Shown: positions 2,563 to 13,415 of the stretch, one piece after another
Layout of the letters: each line of letters opens with the position of its first letter
How positions within the stretch are numbered: the stretch's first letter is position 1
IMG/VR virus record: IMGVR_UViG_2734482785_000006
Span: 1-20,059 of that record
From: a virus
Taxonomy: Duplodnaviria > Heunggongvirae > Uroviricota > Caudoviricetes
Length of the DNA stretch: 20,059 nt
Reading direction: 5' to 3' (one strand)
Notes under the pieces: generated by a model
What the model was told of the DNA's origin: nothing
The model's database searches: none
What the model saw: only the letters and a program-made list of their open reading frames with translations
Made by a program: the position numbers and the translations under genes

Positions 2563-2620
2563 AAAAAGGGCGGCAGAGCAGTCACGGAGTAAAACTGATA
2601 CCGCCAAACGTCACCAGAAA
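2563..2620 (-). ncRNA. dicF: DicF small regulatory RNA (antisense regulator of ftsZ and other targets) with its 3' terminator
   Basis: Reverse complement of 2563..2620 reads TTTCTGGTGACGTTTGGCGGTATCAGTTTTACTCCGTGACTGCTCTGCCGCCCTTTTT, which matches the DicF sequence as I recall it, including the GC stem and U-tail; correct position upstream of dicB. Confidence 0.8.
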
Positions 2621-4939: not shown

Positions 4940-5020
4940 ATCTTTAGTAATCACTAAACAAGCAAATACTTGACTTAATGGTTTATTAAACACTAAACTC
5001 GCAAAAAAACACTAAACCGA
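4940..5020. promoter_or_regulatory. Divergent OR-like promoter/operator region between repressor and cro-like gene
   Basis: Three direct copies of CACTAAAC (4952..4959, 4991..4998, 5010..5017), a TTTAGT-aatc-ACTAAA palindrome (4943..4958), and a rightward TTGACT (4970..4975), 18-bp spacer, TAAACT (4994..4999) promoter; the leftward promoter for the repressor is described under that gene. Confidence 0.45.
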
Positions 5021-5027
5021 GGAAGGT

Positions 5028-5330
5028 ATGACATTAAAAGAGTTTATTAAATCATTGAGAGTTGGTGATGCTAAGAAATTCGCGGCCAGACTTGGTGTAT
5101 CGCCATCTTACTTATCGCAAATGGCGTCTGGACGAGCAGCTATATCTCCAACCCGCGCCCTTATGATCGAATCTGCGACGGAAGGCCAGGTAAGTAGGGC
5201 GGAGCTACGACCCCATGATTGGGAGCTTATTTGGCCTGAGTATGCGAGCGGCATTCGTTTGGGGCAAACACATGTAGTTCATGCTGAAGGTGATTGTAGT
5301 GCATGCTTATCTGATGGAGTTGATTCATGA
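5028..5330 (+). CDS. Cro/YdaS-like HTH DNA-binding protein (100 aa)
   Basis: ATG at 5028 with GAGGAAGG Shine-Dalgarno; product has HTH core FAARLGVSPSYLSQMASGRAAISPTRALMIESATEGQVSRAELRPHDW typical of the YdaS/Cro family; divergent from the repressor gene. Confidence 0.7.
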   Translation: MTLKEFIKSLRVGDAKKFAARLGVSPSYLSQMASGRAAISPTRALMIESATEGQVSRAELRPHDWELIWPEYASGIRLGQTHVVHAEGDCSACLSDGVDS

Positions 5331-5752
5331 AAATCAAGCATGAACACATCCGCATGGCGATGAATGCCTGGGCACATCCGGACGGCGAGAAAGTACCGGC
5401 TGCAGAGATTACCAAAGCGTATTTCGAACTGGGAATTACGTTCCCGGAACTGTATGACGACAGCCATCCGGAAGCCCTGGCACGCAATACTCAGAAAATT
5501 TTCCGCTGGGTGGAGAAAGACACCCCTGATGCGGTTAAAAAAATTCAGGCGTTGTTACCAGCTATCGAAAAAGCAATGCCACCTCTGCTGGTGGCCCGAA
5601 TGCGCAGCCATAGCTCAGCCTATTTTCGGGAACTAGTGGAGACGCGGGAACGACTGGTGAGAGACGCTGATGATTTTGTCGCAGTGGCGATCGCTGGTTT
5701 CAACCAGATGAATCGTGGTGGCCCTGCAGGAAATATTGTGGCTGTGCATTGA
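5327..5752 (+). CDS. ydaT: YdaT-like (CII-like) protein (141 aa)
   Basis: Start overlaps the previous stop (ATGA); N-terminus MKIKHEHI... matches my recollection of Rac YdaT; position after the cro-like gene. Confidence 0.6.
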   Translation: MKIKHEHIRMAMNAWAHPDGEKVPAAEITKAYFELGITFPELYDDSHPEALARNTQKIFRWVEKDTPDAVKKIQALLPAIEKAMPPLLVARMRSHSSAYFRELVETRERLVRDADDFVAVAIAGFNQMNRGGPAGNIVAVH

Positions 5753-5823
5753 CTCGCAATATTCATACCGGATCACTTCCGGCAATTTGTGAGTAAAAAG
5801 ATTCGGTATCAAAAGAGGTGAGT

Positions 5824-6864
5824 ATGGCTAACGCCTGGCTCAGATTATGGCATGACATGCCAAATGATCCTAAGTGGCGAACAATTTCCAGGGTGTCAGG
5901 ACAGCCAATCGCAACAGTGATGGCTGTGTATATCCACCTTCTGGTGAGCGCGTCACGAAATGTCACGACATGTCACGGCGTGTCACTACGTGGTCACATT
6001 GATGTCACGACGGAAGATTTAGCAAGTGCGCTTGATGTGACGGAAGAAGTAATTGATTCAATTTTACAGGCAATGCAGGGGCGGGTACTTGATGGAGATT
6101 TAATCACTGGATGGGAAAAACGCCAGGTACTGAAAGAGGACAATGGCAACGTTTCACAAACCGCGAAATCCCCGGCAGAGCGCAAGAGAGCGCAGCGCGA
6201 GAGGGAAAAATTACGAAAACAGAATGAGGGGTGTCACGACGAGTCACGCATATGTCACGACATGTCACGACGAGTCACGACAGATAAAGATACAGATAAA
6301 GAATTAAACCCCACACATAACGCGCACGTGCGCGAGAGTGCTCCGACCAGTGAGTCGAGTGGTACGCCGTTGCAGGCAGCAGAACCTGCATCCCTGGATG
6401 GCCTGAGCGAACCCATCGGGAAATTTCCGATGGCCGATGGCTGGCATCCGTCGCCGGATTTTCGACGGCGGGCTGCACTGTGGGGAGTTGCTTTGCCGGA
6501 GCCGGAATTTACACCTGCTGAACTTGCCGCCTTCCGGGACTACTGGGCAGCGGAGGGGAAAGTTTTCACGCAGGTTCAGTGGGAGCAGAAATTCGCCCGT
6601 CACGTAAATCACGTCAGGGCGCAGGTTAAACCAGTCAGCAAGGGGGTGAACCATGCAGCAGCACCAGGTGGTACCGCATCACGGGCAGTTCAGGAAATTC
6701 GGGCAGCACGTGAACAGTGGGAACGTGAAAACGGATTTATCAGCGACGGAAACGGCGTGGAAGCTGTGGGAACTCATGGGGGAGGTTTATTCGAACCGCT
6801 GGACCCAGAAGAACGGGGCCGCACCTTCGAAGCTCTGGATTGCACAGATTGGTGCGATGACTGA
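5824..6864 (+). CDS. Replication initiator, lambda O-like / YdaU-like (DUF1376-type N-terminus), ~346 aa
   Basis: ATG at 5824 five nt after GAGG (track start 5818 is GTG); N-terminus MANAWLRLWHDMPNDPKWRTI... resembles Rac YdaU; gene contains two clusters of GTCACG iterons followed by an AT-rich stretch, as for ori-lambda inside O. Confidence 0.65.
   Translation: MANAWLRLWHDMPNDPKWRTISRVSGQPIATVMAVYIHLLVSASRNVTTCHGVSLRGHIDVTTEDLASALDVTEEVIDSILQAMQGRVLDGDLITGWEKRQVLKEDNGNVSQTAKSPAERKRAQREREKLRKQNEGCHDESRICHDMSRRVTTDKDTDKELNPTHNAHVRESAPTSESSGTPLQAAEPASLDGLSEPIGKFPMADGWHPSPDFRRRAALWGVALPEPEFTPAELAAFRDYWAAEGKVFTQVQWEQKFARHVNHVRAQVKPVSKGVNHAAAPGGTASRAVQEIRAAREQWERENGFISDGNGVEAVGTHGGGLFEPLDPEERGRTFEALDCTDWCDD
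5952..6010. repeat. Iteron cluster 1: six copies of (T)GTCAC(G) at ~10-bp spacing
   Basis: cgtcacgaaa tgtcacgaca tgtcacggcg tgtcactacg tggtcacatt gatgtcacga read directly in the sequence. Confidence 0.55.
6231..6300. repeat. Iteron cluster 2 (five GTCACG copies at ~10-bp spacing) plus adjacent AT-rich direct repeat; candidate replication origin
   Basis: gtgtcacgac gagtcacgca tatgtcacga catgtcacga cgagtcacga followed by cagataaaga tacagataaa gaattaaacc. Confidence 0.55.
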
Positions 6865-7318
6865 GCAGCAAATCCGGCAGGTCTGCCGCCAGTGCATGGA
6901 CCGCTGCCGGGCGGGTGAAACATGGCCTCCGGACCTGGCTGAGTTTGTGGCGCTGATTTCGGAAAGCGGGGCCAATCCATTCAGTCTGACGGTGGATGCC
7001 GTGATGGAGGAGTACCGCCGCTGGCGCAACGAGTCCTGGCGATACGACGGGAGCGATAAATATCCGTGGTCTCAGCCTGTGCTGTATCACATTTGTCTCG
7101 AGATGCGTTCAAAGGGGATTGAGCGCCAGATGACCGAAGGGGAGTTAAAACGGCTTGCAGAACGGCAGCTGACGAAATGGGCAAAGCATGTTGGTAATGG
7201 CTTCAGCGTTCCGCCCGTACGGCGGCAACTGGCAGCACCAGAACGCCCGTCGGGGCCAACACCAATTGAGTTGCTGAAACAGGAATATGAGCGCCGGAAA
7301 GCGGCTGGTTTTGTATGA
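6653..7318 (+). CDS. Lambda P-like replicative helicase loader (start uncertain: ATG 6653, 6776 or 6857)
   Basis: C-terminal half (DGSDKYPWSQPVLYHICLEMRSKG...MTEGELKRLAERQLTKWAKHV) resembles recalled lambda P (ESYPWKSNAHYW...LTDAELRRKAADEL). ATG 6653 has an AAGGGGGTG Shine-Dalgarno; ATG 6857 overlaps the O-like stop. Confidence 0.55.
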   Translation: MQQHQVVPHHGQFRKFGQHVNSGNVKTDLSATETAWKLWELMGEVYSNRWTQKNGAAPSKLWIAQIGAMTEQQIRQVCRQCMDRCRAGETWPPDLAEFVALISESGANPFSLTVDAVMEEYRRWRNESWRYDGSDKYPWSQPVLYHICLEMRSKGIERQMTEGELKRLAERQLTKWAKHVGNGFSVPPVRRQLAAPERPSGPTPIELLKQEYERRKAAGFV

Positions 7319-7743
7319 ATTGTGAAGGTGATTTTTCAGGAGGGCTTGTGGCAAAAGCATATACACCCGAACAGCGGGAAGCGCTGAAGGCACGAATTAT
7401 CGGGTTGGTACGCAAAAATGAACGCATGACGATGTCGCAGCTGGAGAGGGCGACTGGGGCAGGCTGGCATTCGGTCCGACGCTGCCTTGTGGATGTGCTG
7501 GCTTGTGGCGATTTATACATGTCCGGTAAATACGGTGTTTTTGCGTCAGAGCAGACGTATCGCGAATGGCGTAAGACACCGGAGAAAACAACTGACCAGA
7601 CGTTGATTCGAAGGTTACCAGACGGAGAGATACGCCGCTATGACAGGCATCAGAACATCATTTGCCGTGAGTGCCGGCAGAGTGAGGTTATGCAGCGTGT
7701 GCTGGCGTTCTATCAGGGTAATTTTCAGGAGGTGATGGAGTGA
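7315..7743 (+). CDS. Hypothetical protein (142 aa)
   Basis: ATG overlaps the P-like stop (ATGA); product MNCEGDFSGGLVAKAYTPEQREALKARIIGLVRKNERMTMSQLERATG...; no family recognised. Confidence 0.5.
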   Translation: MNCEGDFSGGLVAKAYTPEQREALKARIIGLVRKNERMTMSQLERATGAGWHSVRRCLVDVLACGDLYMSGKYGVFASEQTYREWRKTPEKTTDQTLIRRLPDGEIRRYDRHQNIICRECRQSEVMQRVLAFYQGNFQEVME

Positions 7744-8039
7744 GGGTGAGGGTTTATATCGCCGGTCCGATGACCGGGTATAAAAATTTCAACCGTGAGG
7801 CGTTCCACAATGCGGAAGAGGAACTGAAACGGGAAGGGCATACAGTCTTAAACCCGGCAGTACTTCCGGACGGGCTGACACAGCCACACTACATGGATAT
7901 TTGCATGGCAATGATTCGTTGTGTGGATGCGATTTACATGCTGAAAGGCTGGCAGCGGTCAGCAGGCGCTAAGGCGGAACTGGCACTGGCGGAGAAGCTG
8001 GGGCATGCAGTTATTTTCCAGGAGGCAACCAGTGAGTAA
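7740..8039 (+). CDS. DUF4406-like protein (nucleoside 2-deoxyribosyltransferase-like fold), 99 aa
   Basis: GTG start overlapping the previous stop; N-terminal VYIAGPMTGYKNFNREAFHNAEEELKREGHTVLNP motif typical of DUF4406 phage proteins. Confidence 0.5.
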   Translation: MRVRVYIAGPMTGYKNFNREAFHNAEEELKREGHTVLNPAVLPDGLTQPHYMDICMAMIRCVDAIYMLKGWQRSAGAKAELALAEKLGHAVIFQEATSE

Positions 8040-13138: not shown

Positions 13139-13169
13139 TTGACCAGACACATTGTCCGGGGCTATATTC
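13139..13169 (+). promoter_or_regulatory. PR'-like late promoter (qut region expected here)
   Basis: TTGACC (13139..13144), 17-bp spacer, CTATAT/TATATT, immediately after the Q stop; followed by a CGCCAG-caaaat-CTGGCG hairpin (13176..13193). Confidence 0.4.
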
Positions 13170-13230
13170 CTCACGCGCCAGCAAAATCTGGCGTCGGGAT
13201 TAGGAACCCCGGATAGAGACCGCGACAGAT

Positions 13231-13255
13231 ACACGCCGCGAGCGTGTTTTTTATT
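13231..13255 (+). terminator. tR'-like rho-independent terminator
   Basis: ACACGC-cgcga-GCGTGT stem-loop followed by TTTTTTATT, about 90 nt downstream of the late promoter. Confidence 0.55.
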
Positions 13256-13415
13256 GTCGTATGCACGCGCACATCTGAATTATGGTGGGGCGTATGGGGG
13301 AGCTGAAAGGCTCGCCGGTTGGTTTCCCGGTAGTTCCTAACCCTGTACGTCTCACCACCCGATGATTAGGAACCTGACGGTGGTGATAGTTTAGAAACCA
13401 CTAGAGGGCGTCATT

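Follow-up and report, generated by a model that had tools for sequence, protein, structure and literature searches.

A candidate replication origin with two phased iteron arrays inside the initiator gene of a lambdoid Escherichia coli prophage

The stretch of DNA analyzed here (20,059 nucleotides [nt], hereafter the window) comprises positions 1 to 20,059 of the IMG/VR virus record IMGVR_UViG_2734482785_000006, a member of the Caudoviricetes, and carries, within a single gene (5824 to 6864, plus strand, encoding 346 amino acids [aa]), two clusters of short direct repeats with the core GTCACG. This region is probably the replication origin of a Qin/Rac-like lambdoid prophage of Escherichia coli, situated inside the prophage's own initiator gene, with the upstream array (cluster 1) in an auxiliary role. 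The GTCACG repeats are most likely the initiator-binding sites of this phage origin, and cluster 1 is most likely a second array that is kept by selection and helps to load the initiator.

Phased repeats and protein domains of the initiator gene

Cluster 1 (5952 to 6009, plus strand) consists of six head-to-tail units at steps of 10, 10, 10, 11, and 11 bp: four match GTCACG exactly in a motif search (starts at 5952, 5962, 5972, and 6004), and two, recognized by reading the sequence from 5400 to 7200, are one-mismatch variants (GTCACT at 5982 and GTCACA at 5993). Cluster 2 (6233 to 6279, plus strand), the proposed core initiator-binding array, has five units, all exact, starting at 6233, 6243, 6254, 6264, and 6274 (steps of 10, 11, 10, and 10). 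Units of both clusters are direct repeats of 10 to 11 bp that lie on the same strand and share an asymmetric core; Tandem Repeats Finder assigns a period of 10 to each cluster, and units from both were grouped by the repeat finder into one repeat family. GTCACG occurs 19 times in the window (expected, 8.1 +/- 3.0), a count that none of 100 shuffles reaches, and as many as five copies fall within 50 nt on one strand, compared with at most two in shuffled sequences (n = 2000). A sequence-only reading of this DNA had described clusters of six and five copies, phased at about 10 bp, within one open reading frame (ORF) of a replication initiator and followed by an AT-rich direct repeat, a description that we confirm with the qualifier that two of the six cluster 1 copies are one-mismatch variants. 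Beyond these clusters, the motif search of the 20-kb window returned no GTCACG cluster and hence no candidate for a second origin. A degenerate inverted copy, TGTGAC (GTCACA on the minus strand; 6035 to 6040), was seen on reading the sequence, and its place is taken by an exact CGTGAC in most relatives of the same motif class (class A, see below).

Cluster 2 is followed at once by an A-rich hexamer-repeat tract, ACAGATAAAGATACAGATAAAGAATTAAA (6280 to 6312, plus strand), which we propose as the DNA-unwinding element and which contains the AT-rich direct repeat, ACAGATAAAGA, at 6280 to 6290 and again at 6292 to 6302. The GC content reaches a minimum of 0.30 here (the DNA between the clusters ranges from 0.38 to 0.70 in 40-nt windows), and the tract forms the least stable 40-mer of the initiator gene, within the top 1.3% of the window. 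Inspection of the tract by eye only gave no convincing match to DnaA boxes or DnaA-trio-like elements.

The protein is divided into an N-terminal domain, a linker, and a DnaT-like C-terminal domain. Its sole Pfam match is the DnaT single-stranded DNA (ssDNA)-binding domain (PF17948, E = 6e-18, aa 201 to 267), and comparison of the C-terminal domain with the PDB DnaT chains 6aep, 4ou6, and 9zbt gives E values of 1e-20 to 1e-19; the Pfam scan contained no Rep_3 match and no helicase domain, and the N-terminal 135 aa match no Pfam family above threshold. The N-terminal domain appears to be a distant, sub-threshold relative of phage_rep_org_N (TIGR01714): aa 5 to 131 align to positions 1 to 118 of 119, with an E value of 4.5e-4 and a score of 20.4 bits against a curated cutoff of 49.8, and the corresponding Pfam family, PF09681, is matched weakly by 7 of 52 N-domain homologues. 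The initiator falls in PHROG 1408/3729, annotated “replication initiation protein.” An AlphaFold2 model of aa 1 to 135, built from 52 homologues (mean pLDDT, 75), contains helices at 4 to 11, 16 to 25, and 29 to 45, a low-confidence hairpin at 47 to 56, further helices at 63 to 70 and 74 to 84, and a wing. A Foldseek search of this model against the PDB gave no match with an E value of <0.1, the weak matches being nearly all to winged-helix DNA-binding proteins, and we predict that the domain is a winged-helix-like DNA-binding domain. Cluster 1 encodes aa 43 to 62, the loop or hairpin between helices 29 to 45 and 63 to 70, and cluster 2 encodes part of the interdomain linker.

Directly downstream lies a lambda-P-like helicase-loader gene (6857 to 7318, plus strand; Pfam Phage_lambda_P, PF06992, E = 2e-14), which belongs to PHROG 109 (“P-like helicase loader”) and whose start overlaps the initiator stop at 6857 to 6864 (ATGACTGA), an overlap that suggests translational coupling. 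The sequence-only reading had taken the initiator for an O-like gene with an embedded origin, and its architecture agrees with that idea insofar as cluster 2 and the A-rich tract sit at the interdomain linker and a P-like gene comes next. The gene is not, however, a homologue of lambda O: neither the 346-aa protein nor the N-domain homologues match Phage_rep_O in Pfam, the N-terminal domain resembles phage_rep_org_N below threshold, and the C-terminal domain is DnaT-like. PGAP names the two products “DnaT-like ssDNA-binding domain-containing protein” and “replication protein P” and annotates no origin.

We read cluster 2 together with the A-rich tract as the core origin because a phased array adjoins the least stable stretch of the gene, because it is placed in the linker, because it is co-inherited with the N-terminal domain and exchanged at the end of the A-rich tract (see below), and because a P-like loader is encoded next to it. 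In the mechanism that we propose, the winged-helix-like domain of the initiator would bind the 10-bp head-to-tail units, whose spacing of ~10.3 bp would line up all the bound proteins along the same side of the helix. Cooperative filling of cluster 2 would distort the DNA such that the adjacent A-rich tract opens, whereupon the DnaT-like domain would hold the ssDNA and, with the neighboring P-like protein, bring in host DnaB. Cluster 1, ~230 bp upstream, would assist cluster 2, either by raising the local concentration of initiator or by looping.

Conservation of the two-array layout and selection on the DNA

The layout was followed across loci encoding homologues of the N-terminal domain (~240 from IMG/VR and 60 genomic), with family counts referring to 131 non-identical IMG/VR loci. 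Within the first 600 nt of each gene, the most frequent 6-mer is a short motif arranged in two same-strand arrays at fixed positions, around gene nt 129 to 160 and 340 to 450; the first array has at least three units in 127 of the 131 loci, and the second has at least three in nearly all. Steps between units are of 10 nt in 617 cases and of 11 nt in 210. Copy number in cluster 1 varies from 3 to 6, the six units of the window representing a 21-nt, two-unit, 7-codon (TCHGVSL) expansion of the usual four that is common to many E. coli prophages. The same layout is present in prophages of Gamma-, Beta-, and Alphaproteobacteria and of Acidobacteria (hosts include Enterobacteriaceae, Pseudomonas, Bordetella, Janthinobacterium, Sphingomonas, and Acidobacteria). 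Two clusters had been viewed in the sequence-only reading as more than a lambda-type origin needs; this stands in that two functional entities are supported, given that cluster 1 is under DNA-level selection and yet a few lineages without it keep cluster 2, but the second cluster is a rule of the family rather than a peculiarity of this locus.

The motif itself differs by lineage (GTCACG[C], CGAACGC, GTGACGC, GTAACGC, and rarer forms), and both arrays of one locus carry the same variant, a few arrays being mixed. An initial treatment of the motif classes as unrelated sequences was dropped: when aligned on ACG, all fit the frame NNNACGC, and the switch in specificity is therefore smaller than it first appeared. 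No helical phase between the clusters is common to the family, the gaps ranging from 158 to 261 nt. The idea that a longer cluster 2 compensates for a small or absent cluster 1 was also rejected, as the sizes of the two correlate weakly and positively (Spearman 0.28, 131 loci); instances such as L132, L120, and L247 with 7 units are anecdotal, and we make no claim from them. Deviating arrays include an Erwinia locus (L294) with CGTCA runs of 5-nt period and loci from Pantoea (L290) and Enterobacter (L293) in which GTAACG occurs with palindromic GTAACGTTAC pairs, in mixed orientations unlike those of the window.

In every motif class, an A-rich hexamer tract adjoins the 3' end of the second array, its units (AGATAA, AGATAC, or CAGATT) numbering from 2 to 13 and its length being highly variable. 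The tract behaves as a hexamer microsatellite, with (ACAGAT)13 in L091 (2840 to 2930), (CAGATT)9 in L115, and further cases in L101, L135, and L286, and encodes linkers of the (TD)n or (DS)n type.

Since cluster 1 encodes a conserved peptide (ASRNVTRGHxxVT), constraint on the protein had to be separated from constraint on the DNA. Synonymous sites were compared in 21 loci of the GTCACG class (class A; <90% identical) and 24 loci of the CGAACGC class (class B). In class A, the fraction of the top codon is 0.99 under cluster 1 versus 0.56 at equally conserved residues elsewhere (Mann-Whitney p = 4e-5); in class B, it is 0.95 versus 0.56 (p = 4e-5). Codons beneath the class A iterons show little or no variation (GCG TCA, GTC ACG, GGT CAC, and GTC ACG), whereas equally conserved residues elsewhere (P13, P16, R19, T20, V32, and others) each use three to six codons. 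A 10-nt period shifts the reading frame from each unit to the next (SR, VT, and CH), so that no repeated peptide is encoded; in cluster 2, the motif is found in all three frames across loci, and the linker peptide varies. These patterns indicate that selection on cluster 1 acts at the level of the DNA and not on the protein only. No overlapping gene or RNA family was seen behind the frozen codons, with antisense ORFs not examined in depth.

Modular exchange and genomic setting

Homology between the window and its relatives breaks within the gene at a mosaic joint (6300 to 6324), where that of the N-terminal module ends and homology of the Rac-SA53 ydaU/ydaV type begins. In megablast comparisons with phages, the split falls at ~6282 to 6302: phages vB_EcoS-689R5, Evi, and Tritos align with the N-terminal part, including both clusters, and Rac-SA53 ydaU/ydaV and PPompW phages align with the C-terminal part and the P-like gene. 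Rac-SA53 YdaU has an unrelated N terminus lacking GTCACG yet possesses the same AAAGATACAGAT joint. Across the fetched loci, 47 homology breakpoints lie at 6300 to 6324; breakpoints also pile up at 5316 to 5322, 7320 to 7336, 7615, and 7725 to 7744, at gene borders. Some 20 different C-terminal halves, with no BLASTP similarity to one another, are joined to the N-terminal module, and their grouping does not follow the motif classes. Given that homology with relatives breaks at 6302, the N-terminal domain, the iterons, and the A-rich tract travel as one module, as would be expected if a DNA-binding domain could not be parted from its sites.

Among ten alternative C-terminal halves scanned with Pfam, only occasional DnaT matches occurred. 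Both vB_EcoS-689R5 (L001, 4236 to 4493) and Tritos (L243, 33216 to 33638) have another C-terminal half with no Pfam match and, in place of the P-like loader, a LygF-like or hypothetical gene after the initiator. HNH endonuclease domains (PF01844/PF14279) replace the usual C-terminal half in six database homologues (P0044, P0073, P0078, P0093, P0105, and P0120), and in one locus whose N-domain homologue has an HNH-type replacement (L302), no iteron arrays were seen. Many of the database homologues P0001 to P0095 are labeled “partial,” being 75 to 240 aa long and encoded on short contigs; it seems that short-read assembly tends to break off within the initiator gene, plausibly at the repeats or at the mosaic joint that co-resident prophages have in common.

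Immediately beyond the 3' end of the A-rich tract, a scan for terminator-like sequences located a perfect 14-bp GC-rich palindrome, CGCGCACGTGCGCG (6321 to 6334), which belongs to the C-terminal, Rac-SA53-like module and is reminiscent of the palindrome present to the right of ori-lambda. Upstream of the initiator, the setting is that of an early-right operon (4970 to 5752, plus strand), with a pR-like promoter match from the promoter-like site scan (4970 to 4999), a Cro/YdaS-like gene (5028 to 5330), and a YdaT-like gene (5327 to 5752), all on the plus strand; transcription from this putative promoter would run through the origin. Rfam matches above the gathering score comprise DicF RNA, c4-a1b1 targets, isrK, and C4 antisense RNA, at 2568 to 2619 (minus strand) and at 13162 to 13215, 13175 to 13252, and 13278 to 13362 (plus strand), a set typical of the Qin/P1-like immunity and antitermination equipment of E. 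coli lambdoid prophages. The DicF, isrK, and C4 RNAs, along with matches to E. coli chromosomes, identify the element as a Qin/Rac-like lambdoid prophage. At 340 to 414, the window also has a 21-nt unit (TTGTTCCGTTTCTGGCTCGTT) repeated in tandem (3.6 copies, 72% matches).

Alternative explanations, related systems, and significance

Several observations weigh against reading the region as an origin with an auxiliary first array. The A-rich tract is short (~33 bp) and, although in the top 1.3% of unstable 40-mers of the window, is not the most extreme of them. The alignment to phage_rep_org_N is below the curated cutoff, and the fold of the N-terminal domain is predicted with no more than moderate confidence (pLDDT, 75), the structural search having given no significant match. 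Co-inheritance of motif and N-terminal domain is partly trivial because cluster 1 sits in the coding sequence of that domain. Motif variants differ at only 1 to 3 positions around a common ACGC core and are so alike that the co-variation of the two clusters is modest in information; gene conversion between the clusters could contribute to it as well. The first array is absent and the second kept in L120, L132, L139, L247, L295, and L298, such that cluster 1 is not essential everywhere. Finally, we found no description of this origin or initiator family in the literature.

The strongest of the alternatives, possible but on balance unlikely, retains cluster 2 and the A-rich tract as the origin and makes cluster 1 a control element; the sequence-only reading had raised autoregulation or handcuffing as a role for one of the two clusters. 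Acting as a transcription roadblock, initiator bound within its own coding sequence would autoregulate by limiting transcription of the initiator and P genes; acting by handcuffing or titration, of which P1 incA and F incC are precedents, cluster 1 would be coupled to cluster 2 or to sister copies, thereby shutting the origin off. The dispensability of cluster 1 in several lineages that keep cluster 2, its variable copy number (3 to 6, with the two-unit expansion in the window), its location where transcription from the pR-like promoter would pass, and a distance to cluster 2 (158 to 261 bp) that allows looping without a fixed helical phase all accord with such a role. However, iteron-binding initiators that regulate their own genes usually do so from iterons overlapping a promoter, whereas no cluster here overlaps one, and none lies near a promoter in the window or in the complete genome of phage Tritos; moreover, copy-number control is not an obvious need in a lytic burst. 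The sequence does not by itself separate a positive from a negative role of cluster 1.

It is very improbable that a protein other than the initiator (a host factor, the phage repressor, or a partition or packaging protein) binds the repeats and that they mark a site unrelated to replication initiation. Binding by the N-terminal domain is deduced, and a hexamer core is short, which leaves room for such a binder. Against it, the same layout is seen in hosts ranging from E. coli to Acidobacteria, and phages that share a host can carry different variants; both points speak against a host factor. Further, the motif always travels with the N-terminal domain, whereas C-terminal halves and downstream genes are exchanged. 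Phage Tritos, which is complete (46 kb) and viable, has these two as its sole GTCACG clusters, with no further ones near its immunity region, cos, or terminase genes, and this argues both against a distant second origin and against operator-type promoter sites. Least credible of all is an absence of DNA-level function, in which case the repeats would either follow from a repetitive or conserved peptide or form a microsatellite prone to slippage: the conserved cluster 1 peptide and in-frame changes in unit number by slippage are compatible with it, but it is disfavored by the synonymous-site test (synonymous positions are frozen only beneath the iterons), by the rotation of the reading frame, and by the maintenance of the cluster 2 motif in three frames while the peptide varies.

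Read as an origin, the region appears to follow the logic of ori-lambda while being built from non-homologous parts. In lambda and Stx phages, ori-lambda lies in gene O and is composed of imperfect inverted repeats of ~19 bp in 4 to 6 copies, with 4 iterons in lambda and 6 in Stx phages, the additional ones adding 13 aa (PMC7466680). As there, the proposed origin lies in the initiator gene, where the sequence for an N-terminal DNA-binding domain gives way to that for a C-terminal domain partnered by a P-type loader (here encoded directly downstream); a mid-gene iteron array passes at once into an AT-rich tract (here, 6233 to 6279 and 6280 to 6312); iterons are gained or lost in frame, two extra units adding 7 aa in this case; and the N-terminal domain and iterons are exchanged between phages as a unit (PMC7466680). 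It differs in that the initiator is not an O homologue and has a DnaT-like C-terminal domain, in that its units are 10-bp direct head-to-tail repeats with an asymmetric core of 6 to 7 bp rather than 19-bp imperfect inverted repeats, and in that a separate second array lies 230 bp upstream, within the coding sequence of a folded DNA-binding domain. Because the two-cluster layout is common to a large uncharacterized family of prophage initiators, we regard it as a variant of the lambda design and not as entirely new.

SPP1 offers a second comparison in its replisome organizer G38P and oriL (Missich et al. 1997, as cited in PMC5615212): a phage replisome organizer binds an origin and the helicase-loader gene comes next, as proposed for the initiator and P-like genes here. 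With the G38P family (phage_rep_org_N; TIGR01714/PF09681), the N-terminal domain shares a full-length alignment but not a score above the cutoff (20.4 versus 49.8 bits). SPP1 also has a second G38P binding region, oriR, far away in its genome; in contrast, phage Tritos has no GTCACG cluster outside the initiator gene, and a second, oriR-like origin elsewhere was rejected, none being present in the 20-kb window or in Tritos.

The origins of Staphylococcus aureus pathogenicity islands (SaPIs) lie downstream of rep and have two opposite-facing sets of iterons flanking a central AT-rich region, the initiator itself being the helicase (PMC9371898). Shared with the window are short penta- or hexanucleotide iterons in two sets, recognition by a winged helix (predicted here), and an AT-rich region, all close to the initiator gene (PMC9371898). 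The sets in the window, in contrast, have the same orientation and are both intragenic, the A-rich tract is 3' of the second set, and the initiator lacks a helicase domain, a separate loader being encoded. Also comparable are other bipartite iteron systems (P4 ori/crr, P1 incC/incA, and F incB/incC), in which one array is at the origin and the other is distant, acting positively (P4 crr) or negatively (P1 incA). These resemble the window in having two separated arrays of the same initiator-binding repeat but have unrelated initiators, longer iterons, and arrays that lie outside or flank the gene. Handcuffing plasmids of the Rep_3 type, whose 17- to 22-bp iterons overlap the rep promoter, differ in that the initiator of the window has no Rep_3 match, its units are of 10 bp, and no cluster is located at a promoter-like site. 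For a second array in the coding sequence of a DNA-binding domain, and for a bipartite layout across so broad a family, we found no described counterpart.

A further question is whether the loop encoded by cluster 1 takes part in recognition. Comparison of the GTCACG and CGAACGC classes identifies residues 45, 46, 48, and 58 as the sole class-specific residues of the N-terminal domain, all of which are encoded by cluster 1; the predicted helices and wing are not class-specific. We consider it unlikely that this loop reads the iteron itself, such that site and specificity determinant would be the same nucleotides; the class-specific residues may instead reflect a tolerant loop dictated by the DNA. 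If the loop did read the iteron, a change in the iteron would alter its reader at once, opening a built-in route to new origin specificities and to incompatibility among co-resident prophages.

Of 5426 complete E. coli genomes, 658 carry the initiator allele over 80% or more of its length; strains with this prophage include E. coli 042, ABU 83972, and NCTC86. A defined origin would explain why a mosaic joint and an assembly break recur in the initiator gene. The region would also provide a natural case of overlapping constraints, in which the coding sequence of a folded DNA-binding domain doubles as an array of presumed binding sites and in which protein and site are separable by synonymous recoding. 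For many temperate phages, the layout would supply a rule for finding the origin: two same-strand NNNACGC arrays with a 10-bp pitch, the second of which adjoins a tract of the AGATAA type.

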